From: a virus
Length of the DNA stretch: 37,987 bases
Virus record (IMG/VR): IMGVR_UViG_3300032435_000033
Span: 1 to 37,987 of that record
Strand: one strand, 5' to 3'
Made by a program: the position numbers and the translations under genes. Positions 2,855 through 37,777 of this stretch are shown here, piece by piece. How positions within the stretch are numbered: the stretch's first letter is position 1; each line of letters starts with the position of its first letter. The notes beneath the pieces are model-generated. The model searched no databases, was not told where the DNA came from, and was given only the letters and a program-made list of their open reading frames with translations.

Positions 2855-3279
2855 TTATGCTACCGCGCTACATCCGCCACCGTGACGCACCCGGCTACCT
2901 CGGAATGGATAAGAACAGATTTTATAAAGAGGTGCGACCCTATCTGATCGTAATCCCGATCGGCAGACAGGGAGTGGCATACGACCGGCTTGACCTTGAT
3001 GCGTGGGCGGACCAATATAAGAGCTGCAACGGACGTCCCGCAAAACTAACAGGAGAAATGCAATGGGGCGAAAAAAGACGCCAGGACTCGTCAAACGAGG
3101 CGACATGTGGCACATCGACAAATCGATCAGAGGGCACGGACGACTTTGCGAAAGCACTGGAACTGATTCGCTCGCAGCAGCCGAAGAATACCTGCGGCAA
3201 CGCATCGAGGAGATCCGGGCGCGCCGGTTCCAGACGCGCCCGGTCCGACTCTGGCAAGACGCAGCGGCAAAGTACCTGA
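2851..3279 (+). CDS. xis: Excisionase/AlpA-type HTH protein (Xis candidate) with a long C-terminal extension overlapping int
   Basis: The N-terminal ~60 aa (LPRYIRHRDAPGYLGMDKNRFYKEVRPYLIVIPIGRQGVAYDRLDLDAWADQYK) look like excisionase-family HTH. It lies directly upstream of the integrase. The last 217 nt overlap int in another frame. Confidence 0.55.
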   Translation: MIMLPRYIRHRDAPGYLGMDKNRFYKEVRPYLIVIPIGRQGVAYDRLDLDAWADQYKSCNGRPAKLTGEMQWGEKRRQDSSNEATCGTSTNRSEGTDDFAKALELIRSQQPKNTCGNASRRSGRAGSRRARSDSGKTQRQST

Positions 3280-4208
3280 TCGACAACCAGGCGCGGGCAT
3301 CGATCGTTGATGACTCGTATCATCTGGAGGATTTAAACCCATACATTGGGCAGCTGAGTTTGCAGCAGGTGCACGATGACACGCTGGCCAGCTTCGTTAA
3401 AGCGCGTCGGGAAAAGGGTAGAAAAACAAAGTCGATCAATCTGGCGCTGGGTTTAGTACGCAAAATATTGAATCTTGCCAGCAGATCATGGCGCCATCCG
3501 GACAGCGGTTTAACGTGGCTGGAAGTGCCGCCAATGATCACCATGCAGCAGCCGCCTAAAGGTATGAGCGATGCGGCAAAGGCGTACCCACTGGACTGGG
3601 ATGAGCAGGACAGGTTGATTATGACCCAACCGGCACATCTTGCCAGAATGACGCTGTACAAAGTCAACACAGGATGCCGGCAGGCGGAGGTTTGCGGGCT
3701 GCGTTGGAAGTGGGAGTGGCATACGGATAATGATGAGCTGAAGGGACGCGTGTTTATCATTCCTGGCGACGAGGAGCTGACGCCCGGCAAAGGAGTTAAG
3801 AACCGACAGGATCGACTGGTGGTACTTAACGACATTGCCAAGTCAGTGGTCGACTCGCAGCGTTCAGTGCATCCGACTCACGTGTTCAGCTATAACGACA
3901 AGCCAGTGAGCAGGATGAACAACAGCAGCTGGAGTAAAGCGTGGATCCGCGCCGGCCTGCCGACTGATGAGAAGCACCTGAAAGGCGTACACAATTTAAG
4001 GCACACATTCGGTCGCCGGTTACGGGCTGCAGGTGTTGCTTTGGAGACAAGGAAGGTGCTGTTGGGTCACAGCAATGGCGACATCACGTCGCATTATTCT
4101 GCCCCGGAAATACAGGAGTTACTCAGCGCTGTGAGCAAGCTTTGCGAAAGGAAATCACGCAAAAATCACGCACTGAATATTGTAAGGCTGAAGGTGGTGA
4201 ACGGATAA
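3063..4208 (+). CDS. int: Tyrosine recombinase / phage integrase
   Basis: The C-terminal catalytic region has HNLRHTFGRRL and LLGHSNGDITSHY (R..HxxR..Y pattern). It is adjacent to a tRNA-derived attP core. Confidence 0.9.
   Translation: MGRKKTPGLVKRGDMWHIDKSIRGHGRLCESTGTDSLAAAEEYLRQRIEEIRARRFQTRPVRLWQDAAAKYLIDNQARASIVDDSYHLEDLNPYIGQLSLQQVHDDTLASFVKARREKGRKTKSINLALGLVRKILNLASRSWRHPDSGLTWLEVPPMITMQQPPKGMSDAAKAYPLDWDEQDRLIMTQPAHLARMTLYKVNTGCRQAEVCGLRWKWEWHTDNDELKGRVFIIPGDEELTPGKGVKNRQDRLVVLNDIAKSVVDSQRSVHPTHVFSYNDKPVSRMNNSSWSKAWIRAGLPTDEKHLKGVHNLRHTFGRRLRAAGVALETRKVLLGHSNGDITSHYSAPEIQELLSAVSKLCERKSRKNHALNIVRLKVVNG
4152..4173 (+). repeat. Tandem 11-mers AAATCACGCAA/AAATCACGCAC; candidate integrase arm-type sites (left arm)
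   Basis: Read directly. The same 11-mer recurs at 4379-4400 on the other side of the tRNA-like core. Confidence 0.45.
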
Positions 4209-4241: not shown

Positions 4242-4291
4242 TGGTGCACCCGGCATGATTCGAACATGCGACCCCCTAGTTCGTAGATAGG
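4242..4291 (-). other. attP core: 3' portion of a tRNA-Arg(ACG)-like gene (anticodon loop to CCA), not a full tRNA
   Basis: The minus strand reads CCTAT-CTACGAA-CTAGG-GGGTC-GCATG-TTCGAAT-CATGC-CGGGTGC-A-CCA. This gives an anticodon loop with ACG, variable loop, T arm, 3' acceptor strand, discriminator and CCA. No matching 5' acceptor strand or D arm lies upstream. Confidence 0.7.
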
Positions 4292-4465: not shown

Positions 4466-4918
4466 TTACACCCCCAGCGCCGCCCGCTCATCTCTGCCCC
4501 ATTGACGGACCGACTCAACGAACTCGCCAAAAATAGTCATCTCCTGCATCTCCGATTCATCCGGCAGATAAAGGCCCGTTGCAGCCCCGACCCCGATACG
4601 AGCAAAATACATCTCATCATCAATGCTGTACGCAGCGCGGATCTGGTCAATCATGCGCTGCGCGATCAATCTGCAAGATGGGCTGGCCGCCTTTATAGAT
4701 GACCTCAAACTGCTCGTAAGAGTGACAACACTGACGCTTGTGGCTATCTCAGCGGGCTGATCAGCTGAGAGATTGACTCCGTCGGGCAGCGATATGTAAG
4801 TCACTCCATCAACCGTCGCCAGCTCTGTGCCTTGCCGCTCTCCGTTGATGGTTGGCAGATTGATCTCAACTGTACGCTGGCTGTCGATAAATTTCTGGTA
4901 ACTGTAAATAGACGGCAT
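4466..4918 (-). CDS. Hypothetical protein (150 aa) immediately downstream of the DGR RT
   Basis: ATG 4918 has GGAG 9 nt upstream. The first 53 nt overlap the RT 3' end. It is the last gene of the late operon before attP. Confidence 0.55.
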   Translation of the reverse strand: MPSIYSYQKFIDSQRTVEINLPTINGERQGTELATVDGVTYISLPDGVNLSADQPAEIATSVSVVTLTSSLRSSIKAASPSCRLIAQRMIDQIRAAYSIDDEMYFARIGVGAATGLYLPDESEMQEMTIFGEFVESVRQWGRDERAALGV

Positions 4919-5870
4919 AATGATTGCTCCGGAGATTATTAATCAATGATCTTAAAGTATGAGTGTTTTTGGCGTGACCTAGTATTGATATCACGCTATC
5001 AAGTTTGGATTTTTTAGCTGCTTTGGTGAAATTGTACAAACTGTGTTTCCGGATAAATCGCTTGCCGGCCCAGGTGCGGTAGCCGACAAAGTTGATGCCG
5101 CGGCTCACAGGAGCAATGGTGTGCTTAGAGAACTCAAGGTTGAGACGAGACGCAATGAAGTGCTCGATCTGATCCTTGTAATCAACGCACTGCTGGCGGC
5201 TCAGGCCGAACAGCACGAAATCATCAACGTAACGACAGTAAAAATCCACCTTGAGCTCGCGTTTGATAAAATGATCCAACGGATTAAGATAGATCAGCGC
5301 ATAGACTTGGCTGAGCAGATTCCCGATAGGAATTCCCACCGGCTCACCGTATTCGGCAAACGTCATCATCAGATCGACAAAGCGGCGGTCCTTGATCACT
5401 CGCTCCAGTTGGCCGCGTAGGACCACCCTATCAATCCGATAAAAGAATTTACGGATATCCAGCTTGATTGCGCAGCTGTCCCGTGGACATGCTTGCAGGG
5501 CTTCCTGGGCGTAATCAGCCGCCTTATGCGTGCCCTTTCCTTTGCGGCAGGCAAAGGACTGGTCGATAAACGTCTTGTCAAACAGCGGGTAGACCAAGCG
5601 GTAAATAGCATGCTGAACAACCGTGTCCCTGAATGCCGGCGCGAAGATCCGGCGCGGCTTGGGCTCATACACCATAAAGCTGTAGTAAGGCTTGATCGTG
5701 TAGGTGCCTTCGCTTAATTCGTCGTGCAGAGCGCTGAGATTCGATGCCAGTGTCCTCTCAAAATTGAAGCAGGCTCTGGTTGCGCGCTTGCCTCGGCGCG
5801 CATCCAAGTAGGCCCGATACAGCGCCAGGGGTGTAAAGGCCCGCTCATATAAATGTCCGTGACGTTTCAT
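4866..5870 (-). CDS. DGR-type reverse transcriptase
   Basis: It carries the RT motifs PKPRRIFAP, GIPIGNLLSQ (the [I/L]GxxxSQ signature of DGR RTs) and YVDDFVLF. Its size (334 aa) and its position 130 nt downstream of TR also fit. Confidence 0.92.
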   Translation of the reverse strand: MKRHGHLYERAFTPLALYRAYLDARRGKRATRACFNFERTLASNLSALHDELSEGTYTIKPYYSFMVYEPKPRRIFAPAFRDTVVQHAIYRLVYPLFDKTFIDQSFACRKGKGTHKAADYAQEALQACPRDSCAIKLDIRKFFYRIDRVVLRGQLERVIKDRRFVDLMMTFAEYGEPVGIPIGNLLSQVYALIYLNPLDHFIKRELKVDFYCRYVDDFVLFGLSRQQCVDYKDQIEHFIASRLNLEFSKHTIAPVSRGINFVGYRTWAGKRFIRKHSLYNFTKAAKKSKLDSVISILGHAKNTHTLRSLINNLRSNHYAVYLQLPEIYRQPAYS

Positions 5871-6000
5871 TGCGCCTGACCTTCGAGACCGGCATCGGCC
5901 CTACCAGAAAGGCGAATGCACGCCGATTTCGCAGCCAGCAGCTGCCGGAAAACATCTCCCTTGGCTCCACCATCATCCTTCGATGCGTTTGGTAAATCCG
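5871..6000 (-). ncRNA. TR-RT spacer, expected to be part of the DGR template RNA
   Basis: This is a 130-nt non-coding gap between TR and the RT start codon. In characterised DGRs this spacer is co-transcribed with TR and takes part in priming. No structure was verified here. Confidence 0.4.
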
Positions 6001-6118
6001 AGTCCGCGCGAAACCCCACGTTGTTGTTCGAGTTCGTCCGCGAGTTGTTCAGGTTCAGCGCCCAGAGCCCGGCATTCGCGCCATTGTTCCAGTTGCCGCC
6101 CGATAGAGGGCACATATT
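6001..6118 (-). repeat. DGR template repeat (TR)
   Basis: A 118-nt near-copy of 6556-6673 (constant offset 555). Read in the VR frame it holds 12 AAY codons. It abuts and overlaps the avd stop codon (6117-6119). Confidence 0.9.
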
Positions 6119-6527
6119 AAGATGTCTCCCGTTTATCAGGGCCATGCTCGACAGCCATCCAGCCGCCAATCATGCGCCCTAATTCATCGACCATCAGCGA
6201 GATGGTCATGTATCTGTTTTCGGCCAATCGCTCAGGCTGCACGTCACTGGTTTTGCCGTCCCTGAACTGGAAATAGCCCAGCTCAAAGGCCAGGCGCAGA
6301 AACATTCGCAGCTGCTCATGCTTGATATCCAAGTTCGTGAGCGTCGTCTTTTTGTGATAGCGCTTTTGTGCCTCGACGATGTGCCCATACACGTCATAAG
6401 CGGTGCGCCGGATATCTTGAGCCAGTGCGTACTTTTCGTGCCTAGGAAAATGGTTCAAATACACATTCATCAGCTTTGCGAACTCAGTGAATTTTTTGTC
6501 CAGTTTTGCTTCGGAGTGAAGGGCCAT
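6117..6527 (-). CDS. avd: Accessory variability determinant (four-helix-bundle Avd family)
   Basis: A 136-aa protein. ...NHFPRHEKYALAQDIRRTAYDVYGHIVEAQKRY... matches the four-helix-bundle (23S rRNA IVS protein-like) family pattern. It lies between the target gene and TR, as in BPP-1. Confidence 0.85.
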   Translation of the reverse strand: MALHSEAKLDKKFTEFAKLMNVYLNHFPRHEKYALAQDIRRTAYDVYGHIVEAQKRYHKKTTLTNLDIKHEQLRMFLRLAFELGYFQFRDGKTSDVQPERLAENRYMTISLMVDELGRMIGGWMAVEHGPDKRETS

Positions 6528-6544
6528 CGCTATCGCTCAACCCC

Positions 6545-8161
6545 TCAGAGATACAAGGCCGCGCGAAACCCCACGGAGCTGTTCGAGTGCGCCCGCGAGG
6601 CGTTCAGGCTCAGCGCCCAGAGCCCGGCATTCGCGCCAGTGCTCCAGCCGCCGCCCGAGCGAGGGCACATATCGGCCGTGCTGTAATCTGATAAATAGTC
6701 GTTCCCGAACGCATTCGAGCCGCCCGAGAGTAGGGGTACGCCAGCGCCGGTCATTTTCCAGGCGGTTCCGCTGGTCGCTGCGCTGAGCACTTGCCCTGCA
6801 TTGCCGTACGTCAACACGCGATCGCTGAAGTTCAGCGCGTACCCGGCGAACGCGCTCATTAGCCCGAGATCGTCATACAGCGCCGCGTGCCCGGTTGCTC
6901 CCCACAAGTCGGTTGCCAGGGCTGAGCCGCTGGTCAGGTCCTTCATCGAGGCCGTAGTTTTCAGCACATAGAATTTGTCTGCGGTTGTTGAGCCGTCCAT
7001 CGTTAAGCCGGGCGTGATTTCCCACATCGCGCCGTTTAAATCTGCGATGCCGCTATTTTGGCCGTTATGCGTTGTTTTTGCCAGCGTGCTTCCAGAGCCT
7101 GTTTTGCACGCGTTGAGATAGCCATCGCCGATAAAGGACAAGGCGCCGTCGTTCTGGTCGCCAAGCGCGTTGTTATTGCAGCCCTTGGGGAAGTTGTTTG
7201 TTGCGTGATACCAAGCGCAATACGTCGCGTTGGTGCTAGCCTGCGCGTGAGCTAGTGACAGCAGCGCCAAGGCTTTGAAAATAAACAAGCTGCTACAGAA
7301 AAAGCCCACTCCGCGCGTTTTTGCAGACACAATGGCGCCGTGGTGTGCGTTTGCTGGAGCACCCGTCAGCCCCGAGAACGGATTATGCGCCGCATTTGAG
7401 GACAGCGGGTTGCCCAGTTTCAAGCTTGATGCTGTGCCTGCGTTATTGCTGCAAAGATATTTATCAACAAACACGCCGCTCTTGACCACTCCAGCATCGT
7501 AAAACGCCCTGTGGAGCGCGTAGCCCTGCTCTGCTGCCTCGCTAACTGAAACGAAGGAAGCGTGCGGCTTAATGCTGACGATATTAACCGCAAACCCATT
7601 CGCACCGGTGCCGTATTTATAATAAAACGCGGGCACCCAGCACATCACTGACCCGTCTGAAAACTGGTAGTTGCCATAATTGTCGTGCATTGAGTCGCTG
7701 TAGCCTGACATTACCGCCATGCCCGCCGGGAGGGTTTCAGGGCATATCCCAACACCAAAGCCTGCCGCGCCTGGCGTGCCTATATTGTTGAGGACCGCGT
7801 ACCACCCGGGATCAATCGTGCCGTCAGCGCGGGAGATCGGGACATTCGCGCCCTTGGGCGTAGTTGAGTAACCCCCGCCGTAGACGATCATCGCGGCATC
7901 GTTTTTGGCGGCGACAGCATCAACTGCTGCGCTCTGAGCCAGCGCGGCTTGCGCGGCAGCCAGGCCCGCTTGAGTGGATCCGTTGGTTTCGGCAAGCCCT
8001 GCCTGAGCGGTTGCAATACCGGCTTGCGTAGTGGCGTCAACTGCCGCCGCAACAGCGGTGAGTTTTGACGCAGTGAAGGTATCATTAACCTCAACAACAG
8101 TAGTTAATAATGCGTCGGTATTACTGATTAAATCAGCCAGTTGTTCAGCAGTTGTGGGCAT
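6545..8161 (-). CDS. DGR target: tail fibre / receptor-binding protein with C-terminal variable (C-type-lectin/FGE-like) domain
   Basis: The N-terminus is an Ala-rich coiled-coil-like region. The C-terminus is ...CPRSGGGWSTGANAGLWALSLNASRAHSNSSVGFRAALYL, and VR ends 8 nt (6548-6555) upstream of the stop codon (6545-6547). It is the last structural gene of the tail module. Confidence 0.85.
   Translation of the reverse strand: MPTTAEQLADLISNTDALLTTVVEVNDTFTASKLTAVAAAVDATTQAGIATAQAGLAETNGSTQAGLAAAQAALAQSAAVDAVAAKNDAAMIVYGGGYSTTPKGANVPISRADGTIDPGWYAVLNNIGTPGAAGFGVGICPETLPAGMAVMSGYSDSMHDNYGNYQFSDGSVMCWVPAFYYKYGTGANGFAVNIVSIKPHASFVSVSEAAEQGYALHRAFYDAGVVKSGVFVDKYLCSNNAGTASSLKLGNPLSSNAAHNPFSGLTGAPANAHHGAIVSAKTRGVGFFCSSLFIFKALALLSLAHAQASTNATYCAWYHATNNFPKGCNNNALGDQNDGALSFIGDGYLNACKTGSGSTLAKTTHNGQNSGIADLNGAMWEITPGLTMDGSTTADKFYVLKTTASMKDLTSGSALATDLWGATGHAALYDDLGLMSAFAGYALNFSDRVLTYGNAGQVLSAATSGTAWKMTGAGVPLLSGGSNAFGNDYLSDYSTADMCPRSGGGWSTGANAGLWALSLNASRAHSNSSVGFRAALYL
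6556..6673 (-). repeat. DGR variable repeat (VR), last ~39 codons of the tail-fibre gene
   Basis: It aligns to TR without gaps, with 16 mismatches. Fifteen are at positions where TR has A on the coding strand. Confidence 0.9.
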
Positions 8162-8559
8162 TATAAAAGCTCCAGTGCGTGTATGTTTTGTAGGGTGATA
8201 ATCGCGGAGGTGTGGCTCATGAGAAATACATCTATCTCAGAGACATTTGCAGTGGTCACTGCCTGCGCATCTACTGCAATAACTGCCTGCTCAGCAGCAG
8301 TGGTGGCACTGTTACCCGCAGTGCCAGCACTGGCATCTGCCTCAACAGCTTTAATACCTGCAAGTTCCTGTGAAGCTTCTGCTGCAGCAGCAGAGCTTGC
8401 AGCTTCAGAAGCTTTTGTCGTTGCATTAGCAGAATACCCACCAAGCTCAACAAGGCCCGCATTGACGCCGGCTTCCAGCGCATCGACAGCAGCGTTGTGC
8501 TTTTCCGGGTAGTTAGTGGCTCCGATCTCGATCTTCGCCGGTTGTAGATTGATCGCCAT
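8161..8559 (-). CDS. Ala-rich tail-fibre-associated protein (132 aa)
   Basis: TAATG coupling to the target gene at 8161. It has the same low-complexity A/T/S-rich coiled-coil style as the N-terminus of the fibre. Confidence 0.55.
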   Translation of the reverse strand: MAINLQPAKIEIGATNYPEKHNAAVDALEAGVNAGLVELGGYSANATTKASEAASSAAAAEASQELAGIKAVEADASAGTAGNSATTAAEQAVIAVDAQAVTTANVSEIDVFLMSHTSAIITLQNIHALELL

Positions 8560-13800: not shown

Positions 13801-15183
13801 TGCCAGTATCCGCGCATAGTCCTCATCAGCTATCTGGCCTTGCACTTTCGCCAGCTTCGCCAACTCATCTTCGTATTTTTTAGTAGCGGCCTGCAGCGGA
13901 TGATAGCGACCAATAAGTTCATCCTGTATTTTTGTCATCTCGGCACTTGAGATGGTTATCTCATCAGATGATTCCGCCATCCGAACGTTGCTATCTATCA
14001 CAGCCTCAGCCGCCGAAACGGAAGCGCGAGTAACATCAGCAATGTACGCATCAAGCTTTTGAGACGGGATCTGTGCGAGCATCAAATCATTAAGCTCGCT
14101 GGTTAACGTTGTAAACGTGTGAGAGACAGCCTGCTCAAGCCGGCCGAAACCAGTCTCTTCGTAGTTAATTTTTATGCCTGGTATCAGGTTTGCTAATTCC
14201 CTGTACCCCTCGATCACCATACCAAAGCTGTTGATTGCAGCTGTTGCAATGCCGGCAACCACAACCTGGATGCCTTTTACAATAATCTGCACACCACGAA
14301 ATGCGTCACCTACAAACCCAGCAGCAGTTATAACGTAGCCGAACACTTTCTCAGCGACAGATGCCATGCCCCCCATCTCTTCAGCGACACCAAAAACGCG
14401 AGTCGCCAGATCGGTAATCACCGGTGAGACCGCGACCGTTATCTGCTGCGCAAAACCAGTGCCCAGCATTTTCGCAGTTGAAAGCGCATCACTCGCCTGC
14501 TCGACTTTTGCCGCATCGATTCGGGTTAATGCCGTGCCGGCGATATCTGTTTGCCTAGCGAGCTCAGCGATCCCGGCGCTACCCAGGTTTAACGTATTAA
14601 CCAGATCAATACCGGCGTCACCGAAAATTTTTGAAGCGATGGCCGCTTTCTGCTGAGCTGAATCCAGACCGGCTATTTTGTCTGAGATCAGTTCATACTG
14701 CTGATCTGTGTTGAGCTTAAAAAACTCATCGCTAGAAAGTCCAAGCTCATCAATGGCGACTCGCGCCCGGCCAATGCCCATAGAGGCATCACCGATGTTT
14801 TTAGTCATCGTTTGCATGGCTTTTACAAACTGCTCATTACTGACCCCGCCCATGTTGGCCGCATGCTGGTACCCAACCAGCTTCTCCGTGGCCATGCCCA
14901 ACTGGTCAGAAACTTTTGCCAGACGATCAATCACCGGCATCTGGCTGACAACCATGGCGACGCCGGCAGCAACTACCGCACCGCCGGCCACCATGGCATA
15001 TTTAGACAGGCTTTGAGTAACCTTCCCGTAGCCTTCGGACATTTGTTTGCTGACAGAGATAGTTTTATTTTGCTTGGCGAGCAGAGAGTCCAGCTCTTTG
15101 CCGGTCAGATTTAATTGACGTACGCCGTCCTTCGAGTCACCTTTTATGACCAGCGTTGTCTGTATTTTCTTTTCCGTTGCCAT
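10831..15183 (-). CDS. Tail tape measure protein (1450 aa)
   Basis: It is the longest gene, follows the G/T chaperone pair, is helical and Ala/Gly-rich, and has internal repeats and a Gly-rich hydrophobic block. Confidence 0.9.
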   Translation of the reverse strand: MATEKKIQTTLVIKGDSKDGVRQLNLTGKELDSLLAKQNKTISVSKQMSEGYGKVTQSLSKYAMVAGGAVVAAGVAMVVSQMPVIDRLAKVSDQLGMATEKLVGYQHAANMGGVSNEQFVKAMQTMTKNIGDASMGIGRARVAIDELGLSSDEFFKLNTDQQYELISDKIAGLDSAQQKAAIASKIFGDAGIDLVNTLNLGSAGIAELARQTDIAGTALTRIDAAKVEQASDALSTAKMLGTGFAQQITVAVSPVITDLATRVFGVAEEMGGMASVAEKVFGYVITAAGFVGDAFRGVQIIVKGIQVVVAGIATAAINSFGMVIEGYRELANLIPGIKINYEETGFGRLEQAVSHTFTTLTSELNDLMLAQIPSQKLDAYIADVTRASVSAAEAVIDSNVRMAESSDEITISSAEMTKIQDELIGRYHPLQAATKKYEDELAKLAKVQGQIADEDYARILAGIEKAYRDTTNAITGSGSELGKIQDELIGRYNPLQAATAKYNAELAKLKMLHGTISQSDYDRYLSGIENSYRTTALGIAEAERKTRVLGSQSELLAKSYEEALKRVDASFARAWSGAGEGFDKLAGDLKKSMKDLLGELAHQAITQPILVKLGMVTSSGGLSAPGTGGSVANSLLGTGVGGIAANSLIGAGVSAITSSLLKGVAGSASFVGPLAPTGAGAAAGLGGTITGALGSAASSVMGVLSAIPGWGWALAGLALLGNHISKGDGWKRASIGFSVGPQPVVKDKHEFGKTEFASGLDITLINRRGSEEAANVIATMFQAIDAEAVRLVELAGGRLNLKNVDLAGTHADFGVNNGNFFGLRGGKNGLEDEGALLPLLSSFTRQILQHVEGLDEELMSVLQNATGTAEQILAQFADALALREPDTQAVAEALQAVVTVETELASTRMESVKLMLVTTKAAANLQSSIRDQIYTLQGIALLSQVAVGDVDGRIAEIAQLRQAAVASHAEQMRMEQELYNRRLSLTRDLKDYAISLQIGDKSILSPADQLTLAQKQFRKLSDAVNDETLSNEERLAAGEGLKSAGDSYLDAARGMFASSGAYKDIFREVLGVVENTSALADPGAAFDPTAANNALISELNSLRAELAVITSDSTNKVVDELVLIKGFIEDLAPDLAAAISATMGVFMRGLESKGTYTEVIADKIPKGTLAESGANDYLGNLGLGAVDDYRSKRNDSIPLADIAAYVAEVEASGASWVDKVTAVYTAAIENGVGSGQLAEATSYDQQEIIDAVVGVGLPPFNSYVYPPAAPAAPAAAVAANDGDKRNESASSAEIASYVTGVMSSGASWIDQIKMIYDAANDNGIGSKQLAEATGFTQQEIIDAALSAGLPSFSGGGRGTGPESGWLALMHGTEDVMPVNGSGGIRDLITEIQGQNKLLRLVSDNIETVQQAIYNVGMHAAEQREALKTIDNSSLTELQKLTVRRANGSIG

Positions 15184-35857: not shown

Positions 35858-37777
35858 ATGGGTACGTTGACCACCATACCGCACAACAAGCTCAGGCTCT
35901 GCCCTGAAAACATTCGTCGATCAAGTGTCGGCGTCGCTGCTGAGCGAGAGCTCAAAGCGAGCATTGCCAGCCACGGCATCCTGATGAATCTGATCGTTAC
36001 AAAGGAGCCACGTGGTCTTTATAAAGTGCGCGCCGGAGCACGTCGATTCAGTGCCAGTTCTCAGCTGATTGCCGAGAACGCGCTGCCTAAAGATTATCTA
36101 GTGCCGTGCTACATCCTGGATAAAACGGAGAATCCAGAAGAGGCCGCGCTGATCGAAAATACGCTGCGCGAGGCGATGCACCCAGTCGATGAATTTGAAT
36201 CGTATCACCGCCTGCATTTCATTGAGCAGTTACCGATCGAGTCGATCGCTGGGCGCTTCGGAAAATCAACCATTGATGTCAAAAAACGTCTTTCTTTAGG
36301 CGGCGTTGCGCCCGAGCTGCGCGAGCTTTGCCGTGCCGGCGAGCTTAGTATCGACAGTCTGTCAGCATTCACCCTGAGTGATGATCACACTGAGCAGCTC
36401 GAGTGCTATCACGCCCTAAACAACGGCCATAATTTATACGCTCAGGCGATCCGCGAAAATCTTACTCAACGAGGCTACAAATCCAACCATAAGTTAGTGC
36501 AGTTTGTTGGTATTGACGCCTACACGGCTGCTGGCGGAACTATAACCAGCGACCTGTTCAACGATATCAGCTACCTGCACAGCGCGGATCTGATCGAGCA
36601 GCTGGTGACGGAGAAATTTGAAGCGGAATCGGAAAAGCTGGTCGACGCTGGATGGAAATGGGCTGATGTGAATCTGAATTTTTACAATGCGCCGATTAAG
36701 TTTCCACTTCGACTTTCTCCGGAGTTCACAGCTGAGCCAGTCGCGCTGCAGGAGGCGCTGATTGTACTTGAAAAACGCCATACCGCTGCTTACGTCAGGA
36801 TGGAAGATCTCGATGAGAAAGCAGCGGACTATGAAGAAGCTGAAAAGGTACTGCTCAATGAGCTGGACGCGCTGGAGGATGAAATTTCCAACAAAGAGGA
36901 AGAGATTGAGACCGCGATTGAGCAAGGATCCAGTTTTTCTAAAAAGCAGATGGCTTATGCCGGCTGCGTGCTGACACTTAATTATAAAGGCGAGCTGTTC
37001 ATCGAGCGCGGCTTCGTTAAAAAAGACGAGATTGCCGAAATCGACGTGAAAGCGCCGAGCAATGCCGGTGATGATGATAATGATTCGGATAGCAGCGAAG
37101 ACGACCCCGGTGTGCCTCAGCCGTTGAAAATAGAATACAGTCAGGCACTCACCAGCGATCTGATTGCTGCGCATCTGGCAGCAGTTCAGATTGATCTTGC
37201 GTACAGCTCCGATATTGCTTATGAGCTGATGATGTTCTCGATAGCGTGGGCCAGTCTCACCAACGCTGGATTCCTCGCACCTCTGGCCATCAGCATTACA
37301 GAAACCGCAAAAGGATCACTGGATTTTAGAGCCAACCAAGCCTTTGAAGAGCTCAATGGTCTGCGCAAAAAGCTCAACCTTGACTGGCTGCACACCGATG
37401 ATGAGGTGAACAGCTTTATCGAGTTCCGCGCACTGGATGAAAAATCAAAACAGAAAATAGTAGGGTGGTGCGCTGCGCGCTCATTGAACCCGCGACGATC
37501 TGTGTATCAATCCGTTGAGATTCTTGATCACGTGATGGAGCTTTGCCAGACGCGAGTTGCAAAATACTGGAGACCCACGCAGGAGAACTTCTACAACCGC
37601 ATTAATGTGCCCACCGCTCTGGCTGTCGGTGCCGAGCTTTACGACAACGAAGACTTTGCTTATGACCACCGCGGGAAAGCAAAACGCGATCTGGTAATCC
37701 TGCTCGATGAAAAAACCGAAGCAGCTCCCATCGATGAGTGCTGGATTCCTCAGCTTATGCGATCACGGGTTATCTGA
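35858..37777 (+). CDS. Large ParB/Srx-domain protein (639 aa)
   Basis: The N-terminal ParB-like domain has IPHNKLRLCPENIRR, KVRAGARRF (GxRR box) and LIENTLREAMHPVDE. An acidic linker is present (DDDNDSDSSEDD). Confidence 0.8.
   Translation: MGTLTTIPHNKLRLCPENIRRSSVGVAAERELKASIASHGILMNLIVTKEPRGLYKVRAGARRFSASSQLIAENALPKDYLVPCYILDKTENPEEAALIENTLREAMHPVDEFESYHRLHFIEQLPIESIAGRFGKSTIDVKKRLSLGGVAPELRELCRAGELSIDSLSAFTLSDDHTEQLECYHALNNGHNLYAQAIRENLTQRGYKSNHKLVQFVGIDAYTAAGGTITSDLFNDISYLHSADLIEQLVTEKFEAESEKLVDAGWKWADVNLNFYNAPIKFPLRLSPEFTAEPVALQEALIVLEKRHTAAYVRMEDLDEKAADYEEAEKVLLNELDALEDEISNKEEEIETAIEQGSSFSKKQMAYAGCVLTLNYKGELFIERGFVKKDEIAEIDVKAPSNAGDDDNDSDSSEDDPGVPQPLKIEYSQALTSDLIAAHLAAVQIDLAYSSDIAYELMMFSIAWASLTNAGFLAPLAISITETAKGSLDFRANQAFEELNGLRKKLNLDWLHTDDEVNSFIEFRALDEKSKQKIVGWCAARSLNPRRSVYQSVEILDHVMELCQTRVAKYWRPTQENFYNRINVPTALAVGAELYDNEDFAYDHRGKAKRDLVILLDEKTEAAPIDECWIPQLMRSRVI

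Follow-up and report, generated by a model that had tools for sequence, protein, structure and literature searches.

Organization of the locus

Examination of a 37,987-nt stretch of viral DNA (IMG/VR record IMGVR_UViG_3300032435_000033, positions 1 to 37,987; the entire stretch is referred to here as the window) revealed a series of minus strand genes and repeats predicted to form a diversity-generating retroelement (DGR). At the distal end of the tail module lies the DGR target gene (6545..8161), a 538-amino-acid open reading frame (ORF; 8161->6545), the last ~40 codons of which comprise a variable region (VR). Following a gap of 17 nt (6544-6528) comes avd (6117..6527; ORF 6527->6117), predicted to encode a 136-amino-acid accessory variability determinant of the four-helix-bundle type. 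The first base of the template repeat (TR; 5996..6117), i.e., position 6117, doubles as the final base of TAA, the stop codon of avd. The TR is followed by a spacer (Sp; 5871..5995), which would correspond to the structured 3' part of the DGR RNA, and by a gene predicted to encode a 334-amino-acid DGR reverse transcriptase (RT; 4866..5870; ORF 5870->4866). The target-avd-TR-RT order is the same as that of the annotated cassette of Bordetella phage BPP-1. An earlier reading of the letters of the window (the original prediction) had described a complete DGR ordered in this manner, and the target ORF with a VR in its C-terminal codons, the 17-nt gap and the avd ORF were all found as proposed. As judged from its sequence, the assignment of the cassette as a complete BPP-1-type DGR is supported.

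A repeat search returned a direct repeat of 122 nt with 86% identity, consisting of positions 5996-6117 (TR) and 6551-6672 (VR). Alignment of the coding strands delimited a well-matched core of 115 nt within this repeat, corresponding to positions 6003-6117 of the TR, the portion that would be copied, and 6558-6672 of the VR (6558..6672, minus strand). The VR core encodes MCPRSGGGWSTGANAGLWALSLNASRAHSNSSVGFRA, and the TR, read in the VR frame, encodes MCPLSGGNWNNGANAGLWALNLNNSRTNSNNNVGFRA, with 11 AAY codons. The proposed contact between the TR and the avd stop codon could be confirmed, with the proposed TR length of 118 nt being approximately right. Likewise, the proposed spacer length of 130 nt is approximately right, with values of ~125-132 nt being obtained depending on the TR end chosen.

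The TR and VR cores differ at 15 positions, 14 of which fall on the 27 adenines of the TR core (hypergeometric P = 7.4e-10). At the remaining, non-adenine positions of the TR, identity to the VR is 87/88. When these same positions were scored across the 38-kb window, the best value found elsewhere was 37/88 and no second VR was detected. As such, the window contains a single VR, the similarity of which to the TR is beyond chance. In terms of coding design, the TR includes 13 variable codons (the 11 AAY codons, together with ACG and ATG), none of which can mutate to a stop codon and which together allow for a computed ~1e14 possible proteins. Gene callers also mark an ORF of 82-100 amino acids across the TR and spacer (5867-6169, minus strand). 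This ORF, which reads MCPLSGGNWNN..., corresponds to the TR in the frame of the VR and probably does not represent a genuine gene.

The reverse transcriptase and Avd

In DGR RTs, the signature [I/V/L]GxxxSQ replaces QGxxxSP, with Arg74 and Ile181 of the BPP-1 enzyme (bRT) promoting adenine mutagenesis (PMC7826257). The predicted RT of the window contains the sequence GIPIGNLLSQ, such that both of the motifs originally noted in this ORF, IGNLLSQ (residues 182-188) and YVDD (residues 214-217), are present. In an alignment, R73 and I182 are the equivalents of bRT R74 and I181. The protein matches Pfam RVT_1 and is 37% identical to the annotated BPP-1 Brt (E = 4e-61). Its best match in the PDB was the 328-amino-acid reverse transcriptase of entries 8ub7-8ube (183.7 bits, E = 4.5e-53), with lower scores being obtained for the group II enzyme GsI-IIC (73.5 bits), LtrA (56 bits), RTs described as 'retron-type' (~52 bits) and AbiK (28.7 bits). 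These sequence comparisons point to an RT of the DGR type. The product of avd, in turn, scored 65.6 bits against Pfam bAvd (cut-off 40), in agreement with its designation as Avd in the original prediction.

The target protein and its family

The target can be divided into a helical N-terminal extension (residues 1 to ~123) and a conserved domain with a predicted C-type-lectin fold (residues 124-538). The protein falls in PHROG 5302, annotated as 'tail protein'. No match was found in Pfam or NCBIfam, and the best direct sequence match in the PDB presented an E value of only 0.14. When a profile of 32 homologues was instead used, the only PDB sequence matched was 5VF4 (E = 1e-5), corresponding to TaqVP, a Thermus aquaticus DGR variable protein with a C-type-lectin fold. 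The profile alignment covers the motif GxxDLxGxxWE and the VR segment GGxWxxxxxAGxxAL...vGxRxA.

An AlphaFold2 (AF2) model of the full-length target, generated with the 32 sequences, was unusable (predicted local distance difference test score (pLDDT) of 48). By contrast, modelling of residues 124-538 with 118 homologues yielded a pLDDT of 95 and a predicted template modelling score (pTM) of 0.95. In a Foldseek search of the PDB, this model matched TaqVP best (E = 1e-16, template modelling (TM) score of 0.56-0.63), followed by five variants of BPP-1 Mtd (probability 0.97-0.99), and then by formylglycine-generating enzymes (FGEs) and TvpA. Against viral models, mainly 'tail collar fibre' proteins were retrieved, some from crAss-like phage. 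As such, folding of the C-terminus and comparison with C-type-lectin and FGE-type targets, as had been suggested earlier, gave a positive result, and the model argues for the target being a tail-fibre or receptor-binding protein with a C-type-lectin fold and the VR at its C-terminus. In a large survey, most viral DGR targets were tail proteins, the C-terminus of which forms a VR domain of the C-Lec fold (Roux et al. 2021, PMC8144416).

Homologues of the target number >2659, are typically ~450 amino acids long, and form a family that is named by no source. Members are found in prophages of Gamma-, Beta-, Alpha- and Zetaproteobacteria, Campylobacterota and others, with the closest genome match being Spongiibacter marinus (66%). 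The last 40 residues of the family alignment read MCPxxGGxWxxxxxAGVWALxLxxxRxxSxxxVGFRAALYL, with the variable columns being exactly the adenine-containing codons of the window TR. The N-terminal extension of the window protein (7793-8161), ~120 amino acids that are rich in Ala and Gln, is absent from most of the ~450-amino-acid homologues. The ORF found upstream of the target (8161-8559; 132 amino acids) is also Ala-rich, and its stop codon overlaps the target ATG. The Ala-rich extension and upstream ORF could possibly serve as a coiled-coil shaft or adaptor.

Retrohoming in related loci

For comparison, 80 related loci from IMG/VR were considered. Downstream of the target, and in the same order, an avd homologue is present in 61 and an RT homologue in 59 of these. 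Mismatches between TR and VR were counted in 49 loci presenting ungapped TR/VR pairs (114-134 nt). Here, 735 of 847 mismatches (87%) were on TR adenines, with 54% of the adenines differing, as compared to 2.5% of other bases. Those mismatches that involve non-adenine positions are mostly confined to the very ends of the repeats, 3' or 5', with clustering being seen in the last 2-6 nt of the repeat. Moreover, in four sets of loci sharing an identical TR yet containing different VRs, the differences corresponded to TR adenines at 18/18, 11/11, 7/7 and 14/16 sites. Such VR differences at adenine sites between loci with an identical TR are direct evidence for retrohoming, present or recent, in the family.

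RNA pairings involving avd, the TR and the spacer

In BPP-1, Sp wraps the RT and pairs both with the 3' end of the TR, as a template:primer duplex, and with that of avd, where the 11-bp 'cPRT Stop' duplex is formed. Sp also contains a short stem-loop, next to which are unpaired adenosines, and the conservation of these RNA elements has already been reported over 207 DGRs (bioRxiv 10.1101/2023.10.23.563531). The BPP-1 spacer and that of the window family are too diverged for alignment, which failed. As such, comparison of the two RNAs rests on architecture, in which they agree.

In the window, the 12 nt found directly before the avd stop codon (CGGGAGACAUCU; 6120..6131, minus strand) can pair with the Sp sequence AGAUGUUUUCCG (5946-5957, minus strand), with all 12 pairs being intact. 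Across the family, 343 of 348 cells of this 12-bp duplex are paired (98.6%), reflecting 29 distinct sequence combinations. In controls, shifted registers were 39-59% paired, and swaps of strands between loci matched the observed pairing in 0/2000 cases. This avd:Sp duplex is likely the analogue of the BPP-1 'cPRT Stop' duplex. A local GGAGA/UUUCC hairpin suggested by RNAalifold was rejected, as it shows no covariation, in contrast to the long-range avd:Sp duplex.

A second pairing involves the TR 3' segment ACUCGG (5998..6003, minus strand), situated just 3' of the copied TR, and the invariant Sp sequence CCAAG (5960-5964). Covariation was seen here as well (n = 29), with pair 32:74 being GC in 21 cases, UA in seven and GU in one, and pair 33:73 being GC in 20, AU in eight and GU in one. 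By analogy with BPP-1, ACUCGG/CCAAG is a candidate for the template:primer duplex.

The remainder of Sp, also on the minus strand, is predicted to contain hairpin P1 (5967-5992; loop GAAG), a hairpin 3' of the avd:Sp duplex (5931-5945), the invariant motif GCGAAAUC (5925-5932), and a long-range helix (5910-5914 with 5873-5877) that encloses a further hairpin (5887-5900). Compensatory changes were observed in 18 of 26 predicted Sp pairs, with further helices showing 10-17 such changes. The hairpin at 5931-5945 and the invariant GCGAAAUC may be analogous to the BPP-1 stem-loop and unpaired adenosines. The long-range helix, which covaries, uses the sequence AGGCG, 3-7 nt upstream of the RT start codon, such that the ribosome-binding site of the RT may be occluded by the DGR RNA fold.

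Candidate DNA elements at the target site

The VR ends in a GC-rich block, GTGGGGTTTCGCGCGG (6559..6574, minus strand), that is the same in the TR (6004-6019). Past this block, the two copies diverge into a VR tail, CCTTGTATCT, and a TR tail, ACTCGGATTT. The shared block with its diverged tails resembles the initiation of mutagenic homing (IMH) and IMH* elements of BPP-1 (PMC3240598). DGR target sites also include, downstream of the VR, a hairpin in which a GC-rich stem is capped by a GRNA tetraloop (PMC3240598). A candidate for such a hairpin or cruciform was identified at 6521..6544 (minus strand), ~7-14 nt past the VR end, with a GATA loop (6531-6534) that fits the GRNA rule. In the close subfamily, the hairpin core GAGC-GATA-GCGA is invariant and the outer stem varies with compensation. 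At the same position in distant relatives are perfect GC stems of 6-10 bp with GATA, GAAA or GAGA loops. In the subfamily hairpin, tandem G.A mismatches flank the GC-closed GATA loop. The avd start codon falls within the 3' arm of the hairpin, with the likely ribosome-binding region being in the 5' arm. Given this location of the start codon, hairpin formation and the initiation of avd translation could interfere with one another.

Proposed mode of action and current activity

The cassette is probably, and in our view with good confidence, a complete BPP-1-type DGR that is active or was recently active, and which diversifies the C-terminal ligand-binding face of the tail fibre by mutagenic retrohoming. 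In such a scheme, an RNA covering the avd 3' end, the TR and the spacer would be transcribed, as in the Bordetella phage system. The spacer would then form duplexes with the 12 nt at the end of avd and with ACUCGG 3' of the TR, for both of which covariation was shown above, and which, going by cryo-electron microscopy (cryo-EM) work on BPP-1, would serve as stop element and template:primer, respectively. The RT-Avd complex would self-prime from the spacer and copy the TR into cDNA, misincorporating opposite adenines, a step supported by the [I/V/L]GxxxSQ motif, the R74 and I181 equivalents and the confinement of TR/VR differences to adenines. The cDNA would replace the VR, presumably with the GC-rich, IMH-like terminus of the VR and the candidate GATA-loop hairpin as guides, both of these elements being present at the site. 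The outcome would be a library of receptor specificities displayed on a C-type-lectin scaffold, comprising the ~1e14 fibre variants computed above, which this putatively long-tailed temperate phage, integrating at tRNA-Arg of what is likely a cold-environment proteobacterium, presumably used.

Several observations weigh against this reading. Across the 4.4 kb of the DGR region, five assemblies do not differ by a single base, and the sixth contains two single-nucleotide polymorphisms (SNPs), neither of which is in the VR. These are found at 6682 (A-to-C, S494R, 10 nt upstream of the VR) and at 6101 (G-to-A in the TR, adding one mutable adenine). Another copy contains one avd SNP (6298, L77P), with the SNPs at the three positions being carried by loci L081 and L086. 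No VR-variant fragments of >70% identity were returned in a search with the C-terminal 200 amino acids of the target, the sensitivity of which is doubtful, as the full-length self match was also not returned. One mismatch, TR T6105 vs. VR G6660, does not involve a TR adenine, and is located 12 nt into the repeat from its 5' edge. The window hairpin is weak (-4.2 kcal/mol, z = -0.9, nearest-neighbour model), indeed the weakest of those folded. A scan for promoters and terminators gave nothing above chance, and a promoter for the DGR RNA was not identified. Finally, Avd scored 79.5 bits against NCBIfam DivGenRetAVD, just under the cut-off of 80, and its BLASTP similarity to BPP-1 Bbp7 is marginal.

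Much of the above would be in keeping with a DGR that is structurally intact but silent, namely, a fossil of past diversification with a VR that is now effectively fixed, be it due to a weakened target hairpin, a mismatch at the TR/VR edge or a lack of expression. All assemblies, whether integrated or circular, share the same VR consensus, variant fragments were not found, the hairpin is weak, and related cassettes decay, with five remnants of in-frame avd-RT deletions and ~10 loci without the cassette. On the other hand, none of the three ORFs is truncated, the catalytic and signature motifs are preserved, and all of the RNA pairings are retained in the window. Furthermore, the 87/88 identity at non-adenine positions, which neutral drift would erode, implies recent homing. 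As for the identical VR, this is weak evidence against current activity, since the assemblies are possibly non-independent and minority variants are invisible in a consensus. A silent DGR is deemed clearly unlikely. The original prediction that the phage should be able to rewrite its receptor-binding tip is an extrapolation, consistent with parts that look intact and with the past activity recorded in the VR, but the VR consensus is the same in every assembly and variant fragments were not found.

A further alternative is that the element is not a DGR, the RT being of the group II intron, retron or abortive-infection type and the repeat arising from chance duplication or as an assembly artefact. 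In favour of this, the top NCBIfam model for the RT is group_II_RT_mat, and no DGR-RT model is included among its NCBIfam matches. The score of 110.8 bits is, however, well under the cut-off of 300, bRT leads the structural-database matches by 110 bits, and the DGR motif replaces QGxxxSP. Avd is present, and Rfam recognizes no family in the window, be it intron RNA or retron. Assignment of the RT to group II introns, retrons or Abi systems was rejected on the basis of the PDB bit scores, the sub-cut-off NCBIfam score and the blank Rfam result. Nor does an artefact account well for the repeat, given that the same repeat and architecture were assembled independently in at least six contigs and in ~50 related loci, or for the adenine bias (P = 7.4e-10). 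That the element is something other than a DGR is thus extremely improbable and effectively refuted.

The phage genome, integration site and likely host

The window corresponds to JGI contig Ga0209491_10001976. Other data sets contained near-identical contigs (37,977-37,983 bp) with different start points, and integrated copies of this sequence are present in contigs of 119.8 and 76.2 kb. Because permuted and integrated copies were assembled, the window probably represents the complete, circularly permuted genome of a temperate phage. The attP core (4242..4286; strand not applicable) spans 45 bp, matches the 3' end of a host tRNA-Arg(ACG) gene at every position, and was defined from both junctions of the integrated copy (L082 / L085 and L087; L087 11180-11256, L082 ~13875-13920). 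Immediately before the attP core on the numbering of the window is the gene for a tyrosine integrase (3063..4208, plus strand; Pfam Phage_integrase), outside the DGR. ARAGORN detected no tRNA genes in the window, yet this match to the tRNA 3' end bears out the description of the phage as tRNA-integrating. What does not hold is the contrast with BPP-1 that had been drawn on this basis, since the BPP-1 attP is also tRNA-derived, corresponding to the 3' end of tRNA-His, ~1.7 kb from brt. Only the tail type differs. The structural module reads, in order, TerL, portal, HK97-type capsid, a 1450-amino-acid tape measure, distal tail proteins and fibre, and the length of the tape-measure gene suggests a long-tailed phage. 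BPP-1 is short-tailed.

The integrated copy is flanked by a gene encoding an ice-binding domain on one side and by a Suf operon on the other, which suggests a cold-environment proteobacterium as host. The non-structural arm of the genome (~35858-37777, ~1567-2854 and neighbours; L083 and L088 gene tables) encodes a 639-amino-acid ParB_N-domain protein, ANT-domain and NADAR-domain proteins, a VapE-like primase/helicase, an S24 repressor and a YdaS-like protein.

ORF150 and possible gain or loss of the cassette

Downstream of the RT gene lies a conserved neighbour, ORF150 (4466..4918, minus strand), which shares 53 nt with the 3' end of the RT gene and is ~180 bp from the attP core. Comparison with Pfam, NCBIfam and PHROG returned no family match. 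Homologues of ORF150 are found directly after the RT in ~50 loci, and directly after the target in loci without avd and RT (examples of homologues being L034 4943-5350, L047 4974-5435 and L044 7627-8064). Because ORF150 follows the fibre gene where avd and RT are absent, it seems to be the partner of the fibre gene, with avd-TR-RT being an inserted cassette.

The cassette is missing altogether in ~10 related loci. In five others, decayed DGRs were noted (L001 1495-1980, L016 2717-3025, L038 7251-7424, L055 3226-3558 and L056 2316-2565), in each of which an independent deletion, in frame, has left the first 4-82 avd codons joined to the final ~40-130 of the RT. The deletions remove the TR and the catalytic domain, with the fibre gene, containing a frozen VR, and the ORF150 homologue remaining intact.

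Tentatively, avd-TR-RT could be a discrete cassette that is gained and lost between the fibre gene and ORF150. ORF150, retained in either case, could be a fibre chaperone or an unrecognised factor for the diversified fibre, for instance one that folds or assembles arbitrary VR variants, and the overlap of the hairpin with the avd start could couple target recognition to avd expression. We offer this proposal as a speculative one that is rather unlikely to hold as a whole.

Comparison with known systems

The likeness of the window cassette to that of BPP-1 extends from the gene order (mtd-avd/bbp7-TR-brt) and the position of the VR at the extreme 3' end of the tail-fibre gene, a short gap before avd, to a TR that starts at the avd stop codon and is AAC-rich, and to a spacer of ~125-145 nt before the RT. 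Also shared are an RT of ~330 amino acids with [I/V/L]GxxxSQ, a C-type-lectin-fold target, RNA duplexes of the avd:Sp and TR:Sp types, and the adjoining of the cassette to a tRNA-derived attP, with the hairpin candidate past the VR in the window corresponding to the GRNA-loop hairpin of BPP-1. At the same time, the BPP-1 spacer and TR cannot be aligned with those of the window at the nucleotide level, the TR is ~115-122 nt in the window phage and 134 nt in BPP-1, and attP derives from tRNA-Arg in the former and tRNA-His in the latter. The window target is related to Mtd only in fold (TM score of ~0.33, 11% identity), being closer to TaqVP. The window phage also differs in its 1450-amino-acid tape measure and in a hairpin with tandem G.A mismatches that overlaps the avd start. 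TaqVP (PDB 5VF4) is the best structural match of the window target domain, although the two share only 16-17% identity, TaqVP is the target of a cellular (bacterial) DGR, and the window target includes the additional helical N-terminal stretch of ~120 amino acids.

The closest cultured phage is Pseudomonas phage Bise (OR683401), with a genome of ~38 kb and an RT that is 59% identical to that of the window. In Bise, a four-helix-bundle gene, TR and RT are ordered as in the window, and the TR and VR, each 116 nt long (L093 3510-3625 and 4224-4339), present 9 mismatches, all at TR adenines. The Bise target is shorter (364 amino acids) and 30% identical over the C-terminal 260 amino acids. Bise infects P. 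aeruginosa, and its GenBank record annotates no DGR.

The identifiers of the window contig were not found in those supplementary files of Roux et al. (2021; PMC8144416) that were available, and a megablast search with the cassette against phage and E. coli collections gave no match. The window DGR is a genuine, canonical and ordinary example of a system that has been catalogued by the tens of thousands, and as such leaves current understanding of DGRs unchanged. What it adds is a DGR-bearing temperate phage that is probably complete, seen in permuted circular and integrated forms with attP/attB at tRNA-Arg. The ~50 related cassettes provide independent covariation support for the avd:Sp and TR:Sp duplexes of the BPP-1 cryo-EM structure, and the relatives also reveal a variant target hairpin with tandem G.A pairs, as well as the natural presence, absence and decay of the cassette. 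Bise, as a cultured relative with an unannotated DGR, could serve for experiments. Finally, with its repeated and independent decay of DGRs, the family would offer a natural system for addressing when phages keep or discard hypermutation.

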